Below the pieces are notes generated by a model. The model did no database searches. It had not been told where the DNA came from and saw only the letters and a program-made list of their open reading frames with translations. This document shows positions 17,165 through 39,459 of a stretch of DNA of 64,000 nucleotides, one piece after another. Made by a program: the position numbers and the translations under genes. Positions within the stretch are counted from its first letter, which is position 1; the number at the start of each line of letters is the position of its first letter. Origin of the DNA: Candidatus Nanoarchaeia archaeon. GTDB taxonomy: Archaea > Nanobdellota > Nanobdellia > Tiddalikarchaeales > Tiddalikarchaeaceae. The stretch is taken from positions 93 to 64,092 of the forward strand of contig JBAZFK010000005.1 of the NCBI GenBank assembly GCA_041653395.1, in the 5' to 3' direction.

Positions 17165-17177
17165 ATTACAATTAATT

Positions 17178-17261
17178 GCTAAGATGGCGGAGCGGTCTAA
17201 CGCGTCAGCCTTGAGAGCTGATCTCCGAAAGGGGGCGCAGGTTCAAATCCTGCTCTTAGCG
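17178..17261 (+). tRNA. tRNA-Ser (anticodon UGA), long variable arm, CCA not encoded
   Basis: Acceptor GCTAAGA/TCTTAGC, anticodon arm TCAGC-CTTGAGA-GCTGA, variable arm, T-arm GCAGG-TTCAAAT-CCTGC, discriminator G. Confidence 0.96.
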
Positions 17262-17322
17262 GTACGATAAAAGTCAATCGCTGTTTTGTGTGTTTTTAAA
17301 TTACTTTGAGAGTTAATAAAAC

Positions 17323-18480
17323 ATGAAAGACAGATGGAAACTTCACAGCTACGAAAAGGATCTTGACCGTAGAGTGAAGAACATAAAAGAGGGAAAAGTT
17401 TCCGATATATCTAACAAGAATTACCTTTTGGATTATTATGATTACCTGCTTAGCCAAGGGCTGAGCGTGCCAAGAATAGCTAAATGTTTGAGATTAGTTC
17501 AGAAAGCTGATGAATTTTTGAAAAAAGACTTAAAGACAGTTACAGAGAAAGATGTTATATCTTATTTTGGTTGGCTTGAAAGAAGCGAGTACAGCGAATG
17601 GACTAAGTCAGATTTCAAATCAGAGCTTAAGAAATTCCTAAAAAGGTTGTATGATGGTGAAGCTCCAAAATTCATAAATAACATTAAATCCACTGTGAAA
17701 AATAAGAGCAAGATGCTTCCGCAAGAGGTTATTACTGAACAGGAAGCAATAGAAATGATAAAGATTGCAGGAAGTGTAAGGAACAAAGCCTTAATCAGTG
17801 TGCTTTATGAAAGTGGGTGCAGAATCGGAGAGATACTCACTCTTAAAATGAAACATGTAGTGTTTGATGAATACGGCTGCTTACTTAATGTGAATGGAAA
17901 GACTGGAGTTAGACAGGTAAGAATTATATCTAGCACTCAATTGCTAAGCCAATGGTTCACAGACCACCCAAACCAATCACCAGAAAGCTACATCTGGAAT
18001 TCAAGGCAAAACGACTTAATTAATTATAACTCCATTGTCAAGTTTTTGAAAGACACAGCTAAAAGAGCAGGCATCACTAAAAGAGTTAACCCTCACTCAT
18101 TCAGGCACGCCAGAGCTACACACCTGGCAAATAAATTAACAGAAGCCCAGATGAAAATGTATTTTGGCTGGTCCCAAGCATCCAAAATGGCAGCAGTATA
18201 TGTTCATTTATCAGGCCGTGATGTAGACAACGCAATACTTGACGTGTACGGAATCAAGAAAAAAGAAGATGTCAAAGACACCTTTGCTCCAAAGAAATGC
18301 AGATGCGGACAACTAAACACACCAAACAATAAATACTGCTCTAAGTGCGGACAAATTCTAGACTTGAAATTACAAATGGAAGTGCAAGACAAAAAAACAG
18401 AACTAAAAGACATACTTTCAGAACTAATAAACAACCCAGAAACCCTTGAAAAACTTAAGCAAATGGTGCAGGCCAAATGA
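17323..18480 (+). CDS. Tyrosine recombinase/integrase with C-terminal zinc ribbon
   Basis: ESGCRIGE (R), GKTG (K), HSFRH (HxxR), FGW, AVYVH (Y), then CRCG...YCSKCG. Confidence 0.95.
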   Translation: MKDRWKLHSYEKDLDRRVKNIKEGKVSDISNKNYLLDYYDYLLSQGLSVPRIAKCLRLVQKADEFLKKDLKTVTEKDVISYFGWLERSEYSEWTKSDFKSELKKFLKRLYDGEAPKFINNIKSTVKNKSKMLPQEVITEQEAIEMIKIAGSVRNKALISVLYESGCRIGEILTLKMKHVVFDEYGCLLNVNGKTGVRQVRIISSTQLLSQWFTDHPNQSPESYIWNSRQNDLINYNSIVKFLKDTAKRAGITKRVNPHSFRHARATHLANKLTEAQMKMYFGWSQASKMAAVYVHLSGRDVDNAILDVYGIKKKEDVKDTFAPKKCRCGQLNTPNNKYCSKCGQILDLKLQMEVQDKKTELKDILSELINNPETLEKLKQMVQAK

Positions 18481-20219: not shown

Positions 20220-20840
20220 ATGCAAGATAAAAATCAATTTATTATAAAGATTATTTTTAGTATAGTTTTATTTGTTGTATTCTTAGTTTCTTGGATTTTT
20301 AATAATTTTAAGTTTATAACTGAATATATTTTTATTTTTATACTAATATTTGCACTTTATTTAATAGAGTATATAAAAGAAATTAAATATAAAGAGCTTG
20401 AGATAAAATTTGGAAAGGAAGAAATAAACTCATTATTGTCTGAAGTTAAAGAATCAAAAGATATACACATTATTACAAAAACAAAGTCTTTAAGTGGAAC
20501 ATCTAAATCAAGAATAACTTTTGGTAATGATAAATTAGATGAAATATATACTTATATAAATAAAGGAGATTATACATTATCAATTATTCAAACATCAAAA
20601 TTATTAGAGGAATTATTAATGAAAAAATTAGAAGAAAATAAGAATAGAGGTCTTGGATATTTGATAAGATTAAGTCTTGAAAAAGAATATATTAATAAAA
20701 ATGAATTTGAATTATTTTTAATATTTAGTCAATTAAGAAATTCAATTGTACATTTTAATAATGATAATAAATTTATACCTTCAGATATCACAAATATTTT
20801 ATACCCTGTTTTAAATCTGCTAAGAACAAAATTGTTATAA
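20220..20840 (+). CDS. Two-TM protein with C-terminal HEPN/DUF4145-like domain
   Basis: N-terminal TM pair; LRNSIVH fits the RxxxxH HEPN motif. Confidence 0.55.
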   Translation: MQDKNQFIIKIIFSIVLFVVFLVSWIFNNFKFITEYIFIFILIFALYLIEYIKEIKYKELEIKFGKEEINSLLSEVKESKDIHIITKTKSLSGTSKSRITFGNDKLDEIYTYINKGDYTLSIIQTSKLLEELLMKKLEENKNRGLGYLIRLSLEKEYINKNEFELFLIFSQLRNSIVHFNNDNKFIPSDITNILYPVLNLLRTKLL

Positions 20841-21503
20841 TTTAGGTAAATCTTCTTTAATAAATTTTAACATTTTATTTACATCTTCTTCAGAATATTT
20901 TTCAAAATCTCCATGTGCTGCATAATTTCCTATATCTAATTGTGCTTGAATAATTCTTTCCATAGGTAAATTGTAAATTTCATTTTCTCTTAATTTAATA
21001 TTTAATGAAGAAGCTCTTTCTTTTTCAGAATAATTAATTGATTCTCTTTCACATATTTTTTTAAGTGTTGTTTCTATAACTACTCGTAATAATACAGCTG
21101 TTGGGTCCTTAAAATGTTTTTTGAGTAATTCTTCTGCTTGGTCACTAATTGATTCAAAAAAATCACCTGCAATTAAATTTTCAATTTTATATAAAAATCC
21201 ATTATTAATTTCATCTAAAGCACTTTCTAATAATCCTTGTAGTCTTGAGATTGTTACAGAATAATTAGAAATATAGTCTCCATAAAGACTTTGTAATCTA
21301 TCAATAGTTGGTGCAGAATCTTTAAAGGATTTATAATATGAGGATTTTTGAGAAAAAGTTCTATCTAAAATGTTTAAACAACTATGTCCCCACTTGTAAA
21401 AATCTTTAACTTCTTCATTTTTTAAAGGAACTTTATAATCTCTAAATTCTTTACATTTTTGTATTAATTCATCAAATCTTTTTATAATACTATTTCTTAT
21501 CAT
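20835..21503 (-). CDS. DUF4145 (HEPN-like) domain protein
   Basis: DF...I.DQAEELL....D..AVLLR.V.E..LKK.C ... GNYAAHG. Confidence 0.7.
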   Translation of the reverse strand: MIRNSIIKRFDELIQKCKEFRDYKVPLKNEEVKDFYKWGHSCLNILDRTFSQKSSYYKSFKDSAPTIDRLQSLYGDYISNYSVTISRLQGLLESALDEINNGFLYKIENLIAGDFFESISDQAEELLKKHFKDPTAVLLRVVIETTLKKICERESINYSEKERASSLNIKLRENEIYNLPMERIIQAQLDIGNYAAHGDFEKYSEEDVNKMLKFIKEDLPKL

Positions 21504-21528
21504 AATTAAAAATAATTGATACTACTAT

Positions 21529-22587
21529 TTATTTCTTTCTTCTTCTAAATAAGAAGAATATTAGGTATGCTACTGTTGAGAGCCAGTATCCTATTTCAAA
21601 TTGTTTTTGGCCATAAAAAACATATCTTAATGTCATCATTAAATACGCAATGTTAACTATGTTGTTTGAGCTGATTAGGTTTATTCTATTAGTGCTTGGC
21701 TTGATGTGTTCTACTAGCTTATTTTCTTCATTTAATTCTTTTAATGCTAAGTTTTGTTCGCAGACTTTCTTTATCTGCTCCGGAGTATTATTTGTGCTGT
21801 TTTGAACTATTCTAGAAACCTCTGTTATGTTGTCACATTTGCCTTCTAAGAGTTTCATAACTAATTGATTGGCTTCTTGTTTAGTTAATGATTTGAGCTT
21901 GATTGTGTGGTCAAATTCTATGTAAGCTTTGTTGTTAATTCCTGCACCTATGAATTGGTAATTATTTCTCATTAAATCCTTAATTATTTTCTTATCATTA
22001 ACAGTGGCAGATTCTAGTGAATCTAATAGGACAATTATGTGATTGTTGTCTTGGCGTAATTTATTCATTAATTCCTGCTTATTAGCAGACTTGCCAAACA
22101 TTATTCCTTTGGCTTTGCATATATTTTCTAAGCAATTCTTTATAGGCTTAATCTCTGCATAAACACTACTTTTCAAATATTTATCATTTAACCTTTTAAG
22201 CAGTGCAGTTTTTCCATAACCACTCTGACCTAATAAAATCACATTTTTCTTTCTTTCAGCATTGTAAAGAATTTCATCAATTATTTCTTTGTTTTCTATG
22301 AATAAATCTTTAGAATCAAAGATTAATTCTTGCTTTAATTCTGTGTTTATTGATTCAAATTTTCCTAACACTGTTAAAGCTAAAAGTTTGCCTTTAGAAG
22401 TTAAGAAATATTTTCCTTCAATCTTTTCTGCAATTCCATTGATTAAATAAGAATTAATTATTCTGTAAAAAGTCTTTTTATTTACATTTTTTATTTCATT
22501 AAAATATTTGGAATTATCAAATAATTCTTCAAGTATTAACTGATGATTCTTTGTTTTAGAGCATAACTGCACAAGCTTAAGCCACAT
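21529..22587 (-). CDS. P-loop AAA ATPase with N-terminal winged helix and C-terminal TM helices
   Basis: Walker A GQSGYGKT, Walker B-like VLLDSLE; N-terminal KTFYR...GIAEK....YFLT.KG wHTH; hydrophobic C-terminus. Confidence 0.8.
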   Translation of the reverse strand: MWLKLVQLCSKTKNHQLILEELFDNSKYFNEIKNVNKKTFYRIINSYLINGIAEKIEGKYFLTSKGKLLALTVLGKFESINTELKQELIFDSKDLFIENKEIIDEILYNAERKKNVILLGQSGYGKTALLKRLNDKYLKSSVYAEIKPIKNCLENICKAKGIMFGKSANKQELMNKLRQDNNHIIVLLDSLESATVNDKKIIKDLMRNNYQFIGAGINNKAYIEFDHTIKLKSLTKQEANQLVMKLLEGKCDNITEVSRIVQNSTNNTPEQIKKVCEQNLALKELNEENKLVEHIKPSTNRINLISSNNIVNIAYLMMTLRYVFYGQKQFEIGYWLSTVAYLIFFLFRRRKK

Positions 22588-22669
22588 GAAAGATATTAGA
22601 ATTAAACTATTATAAAAAGAATAAAATTATTCTTTTATTAGAATATATTATACACTAGTTAGTGTATTC

Positions 22670-23119
22670 TCAAGGAATGAGACTGAATTCATAGTAAACA
22701 ACAACGCATTCTAATACTAGGAATATGAAGCATATTATTACATCTTTAGCGGAACCAGTCTCTACTGGACCATCAAAAATCACGAATCTTGACTTGTTTG
22801 GATAGAATAACTGCACTCCTGAAGGTGTAAATAAGTCCAAAACTATATGAGCAGTGTATCCAATGAAGCAAAATAAGAAATTGGTCTCTAAAAATGATAG
22901 TAATCCTAGCAGTAGAGACCAATAAATACTATGAAAAAGCCCTCTATGCCCAAATTTCTTGTACAAATACTCACTAATCCATGGAAAAAACATACCTAAT
23001 AATGTGTTAGGGTTATCAATGTCAGGAATAATGCTAAACAAAACAAGCAACATATTAGGATTTAAACCTAACAATAAAGAAACAAGTATAGCAAAGTTAA
23101 TGTGAGTTAACCAAATCAT
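22670..23119 (-). CDS. Membrane metal-dependent hydrolase (YbcI/YdjM/DUF457-like)
   Basis: TH, PDID.P, HRG.FHS, GY.AH...D..T..GV.L..P motifs. Confidence 0.85.
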   Translation of the reverse strand: MIWLTHINFAILVSLLLGLNPNMLLVLFSIIPDIDNPNTLLGMFFPWISEYLYKKFGHRGLFHSIYWSLLLGLLSFLETNFLFCFIGYTAHIVLDLFTPSGVQLFYPNKSRFVIFDGPVETGSAKDVIICFIFLVLECVVVYYEFSLIP

Positions 23120-23155
23120 AAAATAAAAAGACTTAAAGTTATATATAAATACAAT

Positions 23156-25105
23156 TTATTTTTTTCTTTTTGGTTTTTCAATTTTTTTTCCTTCAATTAA
23201 ATTATAATAATATAAATCAATTTTTTCAGAAAAATCATTAATTAAGTTTTGTTTACCAATAAAATCTTTAGCTTTGATTAAATTTCCTTCTAATAAAAAA
23301 TAACCAAATAAATCAAGTTCATCAAAAGCTATCAATTCATTAGTAATATTAATTTTTAACCTTTGTTCAATATAATCTATAAAGTCTTGATAATTTTCAA
23401 TTAAATCCCTAAAAATCATTAAATCATAAATATTTAAAGTTAAAAAATCTTTACTCTTATCAAAATAATCTTTATTAATGGATTTGATCTGATTTGAACA
23501 AGAAGTTAATGAAAAAAAGCTATCTGCATGGATAGATAATTTGAAAATTTTATTAAAATTTTCTTTTTTTAATCTAAATTTTTCTTTTCTTTTCTTTTTA
23601 TTATTTGAATCATAAAAAATAACTTCAGAATAGTTATTAATATAATCAAATGTTGAGTTAACCTGTTCAAATGCTTGATATATTGATTCATCAAAATCTT
23701 CTTTTGTTTGTTGTATTATATCAGAAACATCTGAAAATAATCTTCGTTTTTTTCCTTTAACTTCTACAATAAATAAAATATTATTTTTTATAAATAATAA
23801 ATCATTTTCATTTCCAAAAATATCATAATTATTTTGATAAAACTTGTCAGGGTTCAATATTTTTTCAAAACATTCTTTTACCTTATTTTCATAAAATTGG
23901 CCTTTTAACTTGAAATACAAACTTTTATCTGAAACTAAATTTTCAAATATTAATTTTAAATTTCTTAATAAATTTTGAGGTAAAAAACAATAATAATCAT
24001 TATTATATTTAATTAAAGGATTTGTTATAACTAAATCATAATCAAGTATTTTTTTCCATTTTTTATTATCTCCAAAATTTAAACTTATAAAATTTAAATA
24101 TTCTTTTTTAATGTTTTGGTTCAGATTTATTTTAAAATTTTCTTCATAATTTAATAATTCATAAGTTGCTTTTTTAATAAGTTCTGAATTATTTTTTTTA
24201 AACTCATCAATAGAATCTTTTTTAATTCGTTTTTTAGATTCTTCTCTAATAAGTTCAAGTGTTTTTGAATAAGATGAATACATAGTTTTTATATTATTAC
24301 TAATTTGGCTTATAATTTCATTTATTGTTTTTAAAAAAAATTCACTATTAAAAGTTGAATTAAAACAAGATTTAGTGTAATCCAATAGCTGAGTATTTAT
24401 TTCAGTATAATGAACAGCTTGTGCTTCACCTCTTACTATTAAATATGTTGATAAAATAATATGAAAACATAATTTTATTTCTTTAGATTCTTTTCCAGTT
24501 ATAAATATAGTATAATAAATTAAATCAAATTTAAATTTTTCAAGTAAGTTATATAAGTCATCAATTTTATTATTTTCTGCTTTTAAATTAAATTCAGATA
24601 TATTGTGTTTTAATATAAGTTTTTGTACTATTTCATAAATTATAGTTAATTCATCTTTATTTTTTCCGAGTTCATCACTAGTTTTTGTATTATATTTAAA
24701 AAATAAATCTGCTAATACTTTAAATGGATTTAATGTTAACAACATTTTTTCAATTTTATCTAAAGTATCATATAACTTCTGTTCATTTTCATTAGATATT
24801 TTTATTAATTCTTTTTCATCTAAATCACCCAATGATTTTTTAGATTCGTTTTTTAACATAATTTGTCTACCTTTTCTTGATATTTTAAAAGGACCTAATT
24901 GTTCTTCTTCATCAAAAATAATAGGCAAACTAATTTTATTATTTTTAATATCTAATTCTTTTTTTATTATTGATTTTGTAATTCTTAATTCAATTATTTT
25001 TTTATCAAGACATGTTTTTTTTTCTAATAAATTAACTAATTCTTCTTTTTCAATTTCATGATTTTTTTCTAAAATAATTTTTATATCATCTATTATTTTA
25101 ACCAC
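23156..25105 (-). CDS. Large AT-rich cargo protein with C-terminal PD-(D/E)xK/NERD-like nuclease domain
   Basis: G..YE....E, END.L......IVEVKG, Q catalytic-like pattern near the C-terminus. Confidence 0.55.
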   Translation of the reverse strand: MVKIIDDIKIILEKNHEIEKEELVNLLEKKTCLDKKIIELRITKSIIKKELDIKNNKISLPIIFDEEEQLGPFKISRKGRQIMLKNESKKSLGDLDEKELIKISNENEQKLYDTLDKIEKMLLTLNPFKVLADLFFKYNTKTSDELGKNKDELTIIYEIVQKLILKHNISEFNLKAENNKIDDLYNLLEKFKFDLIYYTIFITGKESKEIKLCFHIILSTYLIVRGEAQAVHYTEINTQLLDYTKSCFNSTFNSEFFLKTINEIISQISNNIKTMYSSYSKTLELIREESKKRIKKDSIDEFKKNNSELIKKATYELLNYEENFKINLNQNIKKEYLNFISLNFGDNKKWKKILDYDLVITNPLIKYNNDYYCFLPQNLLRNLKLIFENLVSDKSLYFKLKGQFYENKVKECFEKILNPDKFYQNNYDIFGNENDLLFIKNNILFIVEVKGKKRRLFSDVSDIIQQTKEDFDESIYQAFEQVNSTFDYINNYSEVIFYDSNNKKKRKEKFRLKKENFNKIFKLSIHADSFFSLTSCSNQIKSINKDYFDKSKDFLTLNIYDLMIFRDLIENYQDFIDYIEQRLKINITNELIAFDELDLFGYFLLEGNLIKAKDFIGKQNLINDFSEKIDLYYYNLIEGKKIEKPKRKK

Positions 25106-25138: not shown

Positions 25139-25444
25139 TTAGTATTTGAGCATCATTTCTCTTTTCATGTGTCTTAATGCTTTGAAAAGTAACTTCTCGT
25201 TTAGGTTTAGCTTGCTAGCTATTGTATTCATAGTTAGCTCTCCGCCGTAGTTCTTGACTACATAATAAGCTAAAGCTCCTATTGTTAGGCCTAGTTCTCT
25301 GCCTTGTGTAAGGTTGTTCTGCAAGGCTTTGAAGTATAACCTTTTTACTTCGCTTACTTGGTACTCTTTTAGCTCCAATTTATCGCACATTATATCTATA
25401 TCTGGCTCATTTAATCCGAATCTTCTCTCATTGTAGTTTGTCAT
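25139..25444 (-). CDS. Single TFB (TFIIB) cyclin-repeat protein; probable start ATG 25444
   Basis: IDIMCDKLEL....V.EVKRLY.KA...NL.QGR......GA..Y.V.K..G...T...IA parallels the TFB cyclin repeat. Confidence 0.7.
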   Translation of the reverse strand: MTNYNERRFGLNEPDIDIMCDKLELKEYQVSEVKRLYFKALQNNLTQGRELGLTIGALAYYVVKNYGGELTMNTIASKLNLNEKLLFKALRHMKREMMLKY

Positions 25445-25446
25445 AT

Positions 25447-25683
25447 TTACCCGCACCTCACTGAGCAAGCCATCCTATTATTTAGTATAGCTCTGCCGTT
25501 TATTATTTTTGCTTCACTCATTGTTTGCCTGAAGTTGCATCTCCAAGCATTATACAAGCTCTCCTTAGTTGCCTTCACGTTCCCACCATAATAGATGTAA
25601 TCATCTACTACATGACCGCAGTGATAGCAGTAGTACTCGTATCTCCCTTTCATCATTACTATGTCGCAGTTAGGACAAAGCAT
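25447..25683 (-). CDS. TFB-type N-terminal zinc-ribbon protein
   Basis: CPNC...YYCYHCGHVVDD.I..GG; GGAGGTG upstream; stop lies 2 nt before the cyclin-repeat ATG. Confidence 0.6.
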   Translation of the reverse strand: MLCPNCDIVMMKGRYEYYCYHCGHVVDDYIYYGGNVKATKESLYNAWRCNFRQTMSEAKIINGRAILNNRMACSVRCG

Positions 25684-25971
25684 AAATTAACACCTCCATT
25701 TAATCGAATGCTTTTTTTTAACCCTATTACAGCTTAACAAAAAAATTATTCAAAAACTCTTATTCAATAGTTTTAAAAGATTAATCTGACGTTGTCTATG
25801 CTTTTATTATTTCCCTGCTGAAATAAAGTATAGTTGTCATCATAATAATATAGTGTGTTAAAGTAATATATAAAGACTTAGTTTTAGTATTTTAGTTTGT
25901 GTTTCATTATTAATTAATTGTAAGTGAATAAATAAAGAAAGATTTTTATTTTATAAAAAAAATAATCTTTT

Positions 25972-26286
25972 ATGAAGTCTGGTATTTTTAAGGGTATTTT
26001 GTTTGGTTGTGTAGCAGGAATAATTGATATTATTCCTATGTTTTTACAGGGTTTGACTTGGGATGCTAACCTTAGTGCTTTCTCAATGTGGATAGTTATT
26101 GGATTCTTATTATCAATATCAACACTAAAAATTAACGGAACACTTAAAGGATTATTAATTTCATTCCTTGTATTACTTCCTAATGCTTTTATTATAGGTT
26201 GGAAAGAACCAGTTAGTTTAATCCCAATTGGGATAATGACACTAATACTTGGAAGTGGATTAGGATATATATTAAACAAGAAATAA
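25972..26286 (+). CDS. Small four-TM membrane protein
   Basis: Four hydrophobic segments; GIIDIIPM...W...SAF..W pattern. Confidence 0.6.
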   Translation: MKSGIFKGILFGCVAGIIDIIPMFLQGLTWDANLSAFSMWIVIGFLLSISTLKINGTLKGLLISFLVLLPNAFIIGWKEPVSLIPIGIMTLILGSGLGYILNKK

Positions 26287-26327
26287 AAAATGTAAATAAC
26301 CTTAAAGAAATAATTTAATTAAAAAAT

Positions 26328-26528
26328 TTAGCATTTCAGTTTTCTTTTCATCTTAAATTCTTCATTTTTTCTTTTTACATATTCTATTACTTGAATTGGA
26401 ACTCTTTTGCCAATATACCTGATGATTTCAGGCCTAACTTTTCCGTTTACTCTTATGCTCATAGCTACATAGTAGTAGACTCCGAGTTTTCCGTTTTTTA
26501 GCGTGACTATTTTCTTTTTAATATACAT
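26328..26528 (-). CDS. Small basic beta-sheet DNA-binding protein (possible excisionase/regulator)
   Basis: YYYVAMSIRVNGKVRPEIIRYIGK, a three-stranded DNA-binding type motif I recall from MGE small proteins. Confidence 0.55.
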   Translation of the reverse strand: MYIKKKIVTLKNGKLGVYYYVAMSIRVNGKVRPEIIRYIGKRVPIQVIEYVKRKNEEFKMKRKLKC

Positions 26529-28748: not shown

Positions 28749-29897
28749 ATGTTAGATGATGCTCCTGCTTTATTGAAAGATAAGAATTTCTTGGATGTTT
28801 TGCATAATGAATGGAATAAAAGGATAGTTGGAGAGATAACTGCTAGGGAAATAATCTTTGCTATGGGCTTAGGCGGATGCCTTTGCTTAAATGCTCAAAA
28901 GACAAGCAATAACTTGATAGTTAACAGCAAGAGCGGTTCAGGAAAAGACTACCTTACCACTCAAGTATTAAACATTATTCCAGGAAAAGAGAGCAAATGG
29001 ATTAAAAGGACTAGAATAACTAAAACTGCGTTCACTTATTGGCATAATAGCACTATTGAGCCTAACTGGACATGGAACAATAAGATATTTTACGGAGAAG
29101 ATATGAATAGTGAAATGATTAACAGTGATGTTTTCAAAGTAATATGCTCAGGAGAAAACTACTCTACTATTGTTAAGGATCAGAAAGCTATTGATTTAAA
29201 GATTAATGGCAAGCCTAGTATTATTATCACTGCAGCCAAAGCTATTTTGGAGGAAGAGTTACTTAGAAGGTTTGCAGTGTTAAATCTTGATGAATCTAAA
29301 GAGCAAGATGACTTAATCATTGACTTTCATTCTAAGGCTGCAATGAATGAAGGCCTGCTAAACTATGATGAATCGGTAATGAAAGCTCTTGATGGATTAA
29401 AACCTGTCAGTGTAATTATTGATTTCGCTGACAAATTCGGCAAATACTTCAAGGAAATGAACGCTAATGTAATAGTCAGAACTAACTACAACAGATTTAT
29501 TGACTTAATCAAATACAGTGCAGTATTATTTCAGCATCAAAGGTTTTGGTTAGATGGAAACACTATCAAAGCTGAGCCTGAAGATTATGACAGAGCTATT
29601 GAATGGTTTACTCATTTATTCAAAAACCAATGTTTAATACCAATCACTAAAGACCAGCAAAAACTTATTCAAATAGTTCAAACATTAGGCCAGACCACAG
29701 TGGATGAAATCATATCAGAAGTAACCTTTGCAGGAAGAACATGGACATACACTAACCTGAACTTACTAACTGAGAAAGGATTACTAGAAAAAACAAGAAT
29801 AGATGACGAAACAGGCAATTCAAGAAAAAAATTAGACTCTTATATTGCAACAGGTCAGACAAAAATTAAACTTCCTTACTGGGTAGACTTAGAGTAA
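28749..29897 (+). CDS. AAA+/MCM-like P-loop helicase-type replication protein with C-terminal winged helix
   Basis: IVGE, SKSGSGKD Walker A, ED Walker B-like, LLRRF arginine finger, C-terminal wHTH. Confidence 0.75.
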   Translation: MLDDAPALLKDKNFLDVLHNEWNKRIVGEITAREIIFAMGLGGCLCLNAQKTSNNLIVNSKSGSGKDYLTTQVLNIIPGKESKWIKRTRITKTAFTYWHNSTIEPNWTWNNKIFYGEDMNSEMINSDVFKVICSGENYSTIVKDQKAIDLKINGKPSIIITAAKAILEEELLRRFAVLNLDESKEQDDLIIDFHSKAAMNEGLLNYDESVMKALDGLKPVSVIIDFADKFGKYFKEMNANVIVRTNYNRFIDLIKYSAVLFQHQRFWLDGNTIKAEPEDYDRAIEWFTHLFKNQCLIPITKDQQKLIQIVQTLGQTTVDEIISEVTFAGRTWTYTNLNLLTEKGLLEKTRIDDETGNSRKKLDSYIATGQTKIKLPYWVDLE

Positions 29898-33030: not shown

Positions 33031-33156
33031 TTTTTTTATATATAGAAAATTCAGGAAACATTTATATAAAATCGCTGACTTGTTTGATCTTTGTAAATAA
33101 AAAAACATGCTAAAAATTGGGGCGATTGACCTTTTGTGTCTCGCCTGCTCTCAGCG
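33031..33156 (+). repeat. Right-end/att repeat copy A (TATA-like box, ATCGC motif, left arm, tRNA-derived core)
   Basis: Aligns with 34324-34450 and 39315-39441; TTTAT box to TGCTC core spacing is 85 nt in both A and C. Confidence 0.85.
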
Positions 33157-39314: not shown

Positions 39315-39459
39315 TTTTTTATATATAGAAAATTCAGGAAATATTTATAAAAAATCGCTGTTTTGTTTGATTTAGCATATATAAAACTCACGCAAAAAGT
39401 GATAGCGAGTGACCTTTAGTTAGACGCGTGCTCTTAGCGGTCTAATAATAGTCACTCGC
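39315..39459 (+). repeat. Right-end/att repeat copy C: complete attP-like site with both inverted arms
   Basis: 13/13 match TGCTCTTAGCGGT (39429-39441 = 17251-17263), flanked by GCGAGTGAC (39405-39413) and GTCACTCGC (39451-39459); AATCGCTGTTTTGT at 39353-39366 = 17276-17289. Confidence 0.85.

Follow-up and report, generated by a model that had tools for sequence, protein, structure and literature searches.

In archaea and eukaryotes, RNA polymerase is universally linked to promoters that have bound TBP by the factor TFB, or TFIIB, which as a rule is one polypeptide containing two cyclin repeats. In TFB, the first of these repeats is seated on the C-terminal TBP stirrup and on the DNA just downstream of the TATA box. 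The zinc ribbon of the factor binds the dock of RNA polymerase, and the B-linker and B-reader help in DNA opening (PMC7289017). In human TFIIB, the G153-R154 loop of repeat 1 touches the DNA downstream of the TATA box (PMC4529316), and residues R169 and K188 bind TBP (PMC6004067).

Two kinds of departure from this scheme have already been published, namely truncated TFB3 and the TFB homologues of archaeal viruses and ICEs. TFB3 of the Sulfolobales is a truncated TFB paralogue and a DNA-damage-inducible activator that is thought to act in trans (PMC6101594, PMC6101591). The Sulfolobus protein keeps the ribbon, has no helix-turn-helix, cannot replace TFB1, and activates specific promoters beside TFB1 (PMC6101594). 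TFB/TFIIB homologues are carried by thaumarchaeal ICEs, by some rudiviruses such as SSRV1, and by Asgard viruses (PMC6563490, PMC13700489, bioRxiv 10.1101/2020.01.16.907410). In a full-text search of the literature, no description was found of a split between ribbon and core, of the tail motif reported below, or of a one-repeat TFB.

Organization of the locus

The window, i.e. the whole stretch of DNA that was analyzed, comprises 64,000 nucleotides of a contig from a Candidatus Nanoarchaeia archaeon. An initial annotation of this DNA had described an element-encoded mimic of TFB, composed of two adjacent minus-strand genes (one for a zinc ribbon, the other for a single cyclin repeat) separated by TAA-AT-ATG. 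Both genes were recovered where it had placed them, and the boundary at 25139 and the junction proved exact. Gene 1 (25447-25683, minus strand) encodes a 78-residue protein that starts MLCPNC...YYCYHCGHV, and gene 2 (25139-25444, minus strand) encodes 101 residues, counted from the ATG, with a single cyclin repeat. A Shine-Dalgarno sequence, GGAGGTG (25691-25697, minus strand), is located 7 nt ahead of the ATG of gene 1. A second, Shine-Dalgarno-like GAGGTG (25454-25459, minus strand) lies within the last codons of gene 1 and precedes the ATG of gene 2 by 9 nt, so that gene 2 has its own translation start, coupled to gene 1. The junction, with its own Shine-Dalgarno sequence and ATG, is conserved in the six copies that were compared. 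The pair constitutes a small operon, located on an integrative element of 15.9 kb in a Nanoarchaeia (DPANN) archaeon, and encodes a split, minimized TFB paralogue.

The cyclin gene

The cyclin protein matched the TFIIB repeat of Pfam (PF00382) with 27.5 bits, above the cut-off of 23.6 (E 3e-6), and the NCBIfam TFB model PRK00423 at positions 120-215 of 312. When the profile of its family was searched against the PDB, it was aligned to residues 5-99 of the Pyrococcus TFB core (1ais_B, 1d3u_B), which are the first repeat (E 9e-6); the second repeat of that core obtained no score. An AF2 model of the protein (pLDDT 82) featured five helices. This model was compared to the PDB in Foldseek, and the best match was 1d3u_B, with a TMq of 0.85 and an rmsd of 1.8 Å. 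The best 43 PDB matches were all TFB, TFIIB, or Brf (Brf1/Brf2), and human Orc6 was found among the distant matches, at rank 46. In a structure search of BFVD with the same model, viral TFIIB homologues ranked highest. No relative of the protein was found in the viral contigs of IMG/VR, and PHROGs yielded only a weak match (E 0.0045) to an unnamed family. That this gene corresponds to repeat 1 of TFB was thus upheld at the level of family, profile, and fold.

The earlier claim that the BRE-recognizing second repeat is absent also held. Only 33 nt lie between the cyclin stop codon and the next gene, no remnant of a second repeat was found downstream of the cyclin gene by tblastn, and the profile match covers repeat 1 alone. 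Because repeat 2 is missing, the C-terminal helix-turn-helix that reads the BRE is missing from the window's pair. Read-through extensions of two cyclin copies, which were returned by a genome search, were unconfirmed by tblastn and were taken as chance matches in AT-rich sequence.

At the sequence level, G48-R49 of the cyclin protein aligns to G153-R154 of human TFIIB (the BREd loop), and K64 aligns to the TBP contact R169; all three residues are invariant. The second TBP contact of human TFIIB, K188, aligns to E82, with K83 alongside. As G48-R49 and K64 are kept, the cyclin protein would still be built to sit on TBP-DNA, and its ribbon partner to bind the polymerase.

The ribbon gene and its tail

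Residues 1-30 of the gene 1 product probably form a TFB-type C4 zinc ribbon (CPNC...CYHCGHV), with its four cysteines at the right spacing for a TFIIB-type ribbon. The evidence for a TFB-type protein is weaker here than for the cyclin gene, and it is consistent with such an assignment. The best Pfam match was PF08271 (E 0.0017), whose 18.3 bits lie under the cut-off of 29, and the best PDB match was the ribbon of Pyrococcus TFB, 1pft (E 0.11). When the family profile was aligned to the N-termini of canonical TFBs in hhalign, a probability of 92% was obtained, over the 30 ribbon columns only. In other genomes, the next-best matches of this profile were the ribbons of canonical full-length TFBs. 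The AF2 model of the ribbon protein was unreliable (pLDDT 55); 1pft ranked first when it was searched in Foldseek, with matches that were not significant. Taken with the results for gene 2, these Pfam, PDB-profile, and hhalign matches support the earlier view that both genes of the pair are TFB-derived.

The remainder of the protein (residues ~32-78, 45 residues) is a family-specific tail with the motif W-x-x-N-[FL]-x-Q-T-x5-6-W-x-G-x-R. No B-reader or B-linker was detected in residues 32-78 by local or global hhalign against TFB (tail E 0.49). Homology of the tail to the B-reader was rejected, given that hhalign aligns the ribbon alone; the W-R-x-N-F of the tail merely resembles the EWRxF of TFB. 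The motif is kept among relatives of only 35-40% identity, and on this conservation the tail is judged to be functional. The motif may mark a new interaction domain.

Integrity of the pair

Two open reading frames that abut in different frames, as they do in the window copy, could be the product of an ordinary tfb that was recently broken, either as a pseudogene or through a frameshift error in one gene. Such an origin was evaluated against the other copies of the pair. The 1-Mb genome contains three intact copies (that in the window, C1:118210-118751, and C24:4695-5236), and more were found on metagenome contigs from groundwater, sediment, landfill, and wastewater; the split pair therefore recurs in related elements. 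For six copies, 15 pairwise comparisons were made per gene. The dN/dS ratio was 0.04-0.23 for the cyclin gene and 0.06-0.26 for the ribbon gene, with a single outlier pair at 0.44, while dS reached 0.76. Both genes are under purifying selection. A truly decayed copy is available as a contrast to the intact ones: C2:75251-75335 retains only the last ~28 cyclin codons.

The junction between the genes differs from copy to copy. It is TAA-at-ATG in the window and in C1, TAA-t-ATG in element L010, and an overlapping TAATG in C24, L013, and L015. The genes are separated by a 9-nt gap and two in-frame stops in L019 and by gaps of 131-163 nt in L016 and L029, and they are divergently oriented in G055 and G013. 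The frame offset between the two genes is accordingly +2, +1, or 0, depending on the copy. Because junction and frame offset vary between copies, a recent frameshift and programmed frameshifting are both excluded.

A recent break is thus scarcely credible as the origin of the pair, and the comparative sequence data can be regarded as having already refuted it. Nearly all of the dN/dS ratios of both genes fall within 0.04-0.26, the split is present in every copy down to relatives that are 35-40% identical, each gene has its own Shine-Dalgarno sequence and ATG at a junction of variable spacing and frame, and the clade to which the pair belongs stands apart from canonical TFBs (see below). What the homologues display is an old, selected split pair.

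A programmed -1/+1 ribosomal frameshift that fuses the two frames into one ribbon-cyclin protein was also considered, given that the cyclin frame extends without a stop for 8 codons ahead of its ATG, into the last part of the ribbon gene. The three frame offsets, the in-frame stops of L019, and the wide gaps or divergent orientation elsewhere all argue against a fusion; a slippery heptamer was not found in the window sequence. We judge a fused product to be highly improbable, and the comparison of copies indicates that the two proteins are translated separately.

The wider family

When 1.84 billion representatives were searched exhaustively with HMMER, only 51 proteins were returned at E <= 0.001. 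The best matches were short proteins that start directly at repeat 1, rather than canonical TFBs. Many of these N-terminus-less cores are ~180-190 residues long and have two repeats and a TFB-like C-terminal helix (…VSESAI…); others have ~100 residues and one repeat. In a tree of repeat 1, 25 N-terminus-less cores formed a Nanoarchaeia-specific clade separate from canonical TFBs (support 97/89), within which seven one-repeat proteins, including that of the window, formed a subclade (97/94) beside the two-repeat proteins P0010 and P0066. Since the one-repeat subclade is nested beside two-repeat cores, the second repeat was lost from an ancestor that was already split and had two repeats. According to the tree, the pair derives from a split TFB on an element that possessed both repeats and the C-terminal helix-turn-helix; since then, divergence of the one-repeat form has reached the level of about 40% identity. 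To call the pair a mimic, as was done at the outset, undersells its ancestry, for by sequence it is a member of a broader clade of split TFBs carried on elements.

The closest two-repeat relative, P0010 (178 residues; L016/L018), has a 72-residue ribbon-tail gene 131 nt upstream, and its element encodes YdjM and a STAND ATPase as well as a related integrase. The ribbon-tail family and the N-terminus-less cores were looked for in an evenly drawn set of 401 Nanoarchaeia genomes. The former was present in 8 genomes and the latter in 9, and all eight ribbon genomes were within those nine. In six of these eight, ribbon and core were neighbors or had no more than a few hundred bases between them; they were 11 kb apart on the same contig in G063 and on different contigs in G027. 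In this sample, one-repeat forms were confined to the host's own family, and two-repeat forms were found in three other families. L021 has an N-terminus-less core with no ribbon gene nearby, and L032 and L033 have ribbon genes with no adjacent core.

In one metagenomic protein of 291 residues (P0054), repeat 1 of an N-terminus-less core is joined directly to the second, C-terminal half of a tyrosine integrase (PF00382 + PF00589); the fusion is either genuine or the product of a chimeric assembly.

The element and its host

A tRNA-Ser gene (17177-17262) is followed by a tyrosine integrase gene (17323-18480, plus strand). Its product shares 59% identity with the integrase of L016, a related element, and 50% with another integrase, encoded on contig C4. 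The 3' end of the tRNA-Ser gene contains the attL core, CCTGCTCTTAGCG (17249-17261, plus strand), which is repeated as the attR core, CCTGCTCTCAGCG (33144-33156, plus strand); a third, tandem att copy with one mismatch is located at 39427-39439. Three matches to the core were thus found where 0.05 were expected. The G+C content falls from ~0.33 to 0.18-0.30 across roughly 18-36 kb, spanning the 17.3-33.2 kb element. The pair lies between the att repeats and near the integrase, amid a backbone common to other elements, and its description as element-encoded was therefore retained. The host recombinase XerA was ruled out as the identity of the integrase, the closest relatives of which are the integrases of related elements.

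The pair heads a co-directional gene array (20835-25105, minus strand) in which variable cargo comes first and the backbone genes for YdjM and the Avs-like STAND ATPase follow. Downstream of the cyclin gene are, in order, a cargo gene for a 649-residue NERD-domain protein (23156-25105), the YdjM membrane protein (22670-23119), the 352-residue STAND/Avs-like ATPase (21529-22587), and a DUF4145 protein (20835-21503), all on the minus strand. The slot beside the cyclin or core gene is filled by different cargo in each element (window, C24, L010, L013, L015, L016, L021). It holds the NERD protein in the window, a UvrD-like helicase-nuclease and an HD protein in C24 and L015, and a methylase with Vsr in L016; a PLD-SNF2 helicase with an MmeI-type enzyme and a small HEPN-like frame were also observed among the compared elements. 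The slot next to the TFB-like genes thus appears to be a hot spot for defense cargo.

Upstream of the pair, the backbone includes a 382-residue Walker-A protein (28749-29897, plus strand). Its homologue in L019 is 71% identical and carries a precomputed annotation as PF27228 (MTBMA_p00010_2nd); we infer that the Walker-A protein is a candidate replication protein. A gene for a basic protein of 66 residues (MYIKKKIVTLKNGKLGVYYYV...; 26328-26528, minus strand) accompanies the pair in C1, L013, L015, and L019. Identity of the basic protein is 94-95% in four other copies and drops to 51% in the distant L019; the protein matched no family and may be a DNA-binding partner of the module. In distant elements, a gene for a winged-helix protein of 187-191 residues is divergent from the ribbon gene (L016 5009-5584, L019 5110-5673, and L025); it is absent from the window copy.

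The neighborhood raises the question of whether the cyclin fold was recruited outside initiation, e.g. for replication or partition of the element, with the ribbon as a generic zinc-ribbon partner. Cyclin/TFIIB folds are reused elsewhere (hence the distant match to Orc6), the pair is located beside the candidate replication gene and the basic protein, and thaumarchaeal ICEs couple TFIIB homologues to ParB (PMC6563490). The cyclin protein nevertheless retains the TFB-specific G-R loop and the basic residue for TBP contact, its partner ribbon is closest to TFB ribbons, and initiation factors account for the best 43 structural matches. A role of this kind is, in our estimate, unlikely.

The host genome is ~1.0 Mb in 27 contigs, and the relatives of the pair that have a named source are all from Candidatus Nanoarchaeia. 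One TBP and three complete TFBs are encoded, so the basal machinery is complete without the pair. The TFBs are a canonical protein of 302 residues, one of 423 residues with an N-terminal extension of ~135 residues (C20:5512-6783), and a divergent one of 351 residues (C16:10654-11709). At least three related elements with the same backbone, and one that is decayed, were also observed in this genome (C1:111.5-123.7 kb, C4:69.6-77.5 kb + C24, C2:75-83 kb, and C21). The element on C1 adjoins a tRNA-Ser-like sequence, and no integrase was found there.

The upstream leader

The ~190 nt upstream of gene 1 (25684-25880, minus strand) constitute a leader/promoter region that is 89-99% identical among six copies. 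Its conservation exceeds that of the synonymous sites in both genes, and it includes a 41-nt block that is invariant in the six copies, TAAAAGCATAGACAACGTCAGATTAATCTTTTAAAACTATT. A consensus TATA box, TTTATATA (25867-25874, minus strand), is located at about -190. Judged by its sequence, the leader is the obvious candidate for a regulated promoter belonging to the pair itself; it may function as a long leader under regulation, as an operator region, or as a small RNA. With little variation between the copies, only two compensatory pairs were available for an RNA structure of the leader, and no Rfam family matched it. The locus was not found in RNA runs, and the one metatranscriptome from a DNA-positive sample returned only spurious AT-rich matches.

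Two further features of this region were noted. The leader contains a short open reading frame, MMTTILYFSREIIKA, whose frame and stop are kept in the C1 copy. A stretch of ~450 bp (25879-26326) is missing from the C1 copy and from variant contigs of two metagenomes, in which 25878 is joined to 26327 with GCT between them. The stretch encodes a hydrophobic frame of 104 residues (25972-26286, plus strand) and looks like a small insertion at the very edge of the TATA box.

Proposed function

Being old, conserved, and under selection, the pair probably represents a reduced but functional factor, with the transcription start machinery of the host as its target. The closest functional precedent is TFB3, and for that reason the reading that we favor is by analogy to it: an auxiliary initiation factor of two associated subunits that serves the element. 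We give this proposal an even chance. The first subunit would be the RNA-polymerase-recruiting zinc ribbon with its conserved 45-residue tail, and the second would be the first cyclin repeat, as the TBP-binding module. The two proteins would associate, probably via the tail, and would join host TBP and RNA polymerase at promoters. They would work beside host TFB, as truncated TFB3 does in Sulfolobus, and would thereby favor transcription of the element's genes. The pair would not be a replacement for host TFB, because it has neither the BRE-reading helix nor a recognizable B-reader or B-linker. Several observations speak against the proposal: the tail shows no alignment to B-reader or B-linker, K188 of human TFIIB corresponds to E82, and cores or ribbon genes are found unaccompanied in L021, L032, and L033.

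A factor without B-reader and B-linker could also form dead-end complexes and so act as an inhibitor. The initial annotation had offered a dominant-negative decoy as one of its two interpretations, the other being redirection of host transcription to the element's promoters. In a decoy, the ribbon would occupy the RNA polymerase dock and the cyclin protein the TBP stirrup with no opening of the promoter, and transcription of the host or of competing elements would be damped; this could serve host shut-off upon induction or superinfection exclusion. The lack of a detectable B-reader/B-linker and of a BRE helix would allow for such non-productive complexes, global inhibitors that bind RNA polymerase (RIP and TFS4) are known from archaeal viruses and hosts (PMC7289017), and the pair heads an array with defense-like cargo, i.e. 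the NERD protein and the Avs-like STAND ATPase. On the other hand, constitutive expression of three resident copies would be a burden on a genome of 1 Mb, the tail motif is conserved strongly enough to hint at a specific positive function, and the older relatives, with both repeats and a TFB-like helix-turn-helix, point to a productive ancestral role. Since those older members of the clade keep both repeats and the C-terminal helix-turn-helix, we regard a genuine alternative or auxiliary factor for initiation as no less likely than a decoy. The decoy is the main rival to the favored reading, and we consider it a rather doubtful explanation.

A more general statement is offered tentatively. Integrative elements of Nanoarchaeia may carry a natural two-subunit TFB in which the polymerase-recruiting module, made up of the ribbon and a new tail domain, is separate from the TBP-binding module, the latter having been reduced in one host family to one cyclin repeat. 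No smaller TFB-like factor would then be known, and the element would use it as a switch under its own control, with which the initiation complex of the host is captured or blocked and the BRE is not read.

A naturally split TFB and a selected one-repeat version of it show which parts of the factor are separable or dispensable. They amount to a natural test of the modular model, in which the ribbon is assigned to the dock, repeat 1 to the TBP stirrup, and repeat 2 to the BRE. To the mobile elements of DPANN archaea, which are almost unknown, the pair contributes a module that is likely to hijack or regulate transcription, and this TFB-like module adjoins a hot spot for defense cargo.

Comparison with known systems

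With canonical TFB/TFIIB (PF08271 + 2 x PF00382; PRK00423), the pair shares the five-helix first repeat (TM 0.85 to 1d3u_B), a probable C4 ribbon of the TFB type and, at the level of sequence, the G-R loop together with the basic residue for contact to the stirrup of TBP. It differs in that it is two polypeptides, with the ribbon on a separate chain; in that a family-specific tail is found where the B-reader/B-linker would be, neither of which is detectable; and in that it has no second cyclin repeat or BRE helix-turn-helix. It is also located on a mobile element, and it is additional to three complete host TFBs.

The comparison to TFB3 was made from published descriptions. By analogy, the pair is TFB3-like in having retained the ribbon and lost the helix-turn-helix. 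TFB3, as described, is encoded on the chromosome as one polypeptide, has a coiled coil at its C-terminus, and is found in Crenarchaeota only, whereas the pair is two proteins with a true five-helix cyclin repeat, is borne by an element, and occurs in Nanoarchaeia. Like the TFB homologues of other elements and viruses, the pair is a basal-factor homologue on an integrative element or virus that presumably steers host RNA polymerase; the homologue in SSRV1, however, is a single protein of 270 residues, whereas the pair is split. The nearest systems are the two-repeat cores of Nanoarchaeia elements (e.g. P0010), which belong to the same clade and share the ribbon-tail family and the backbone (integrase, YdjM, and STAND ATPase) with the window's element. 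These cores keep a shortened second repeat with a TFB-like terminal helix (…VSQSAIQVL…), whereas the protein in the window ends right after repeat 1.
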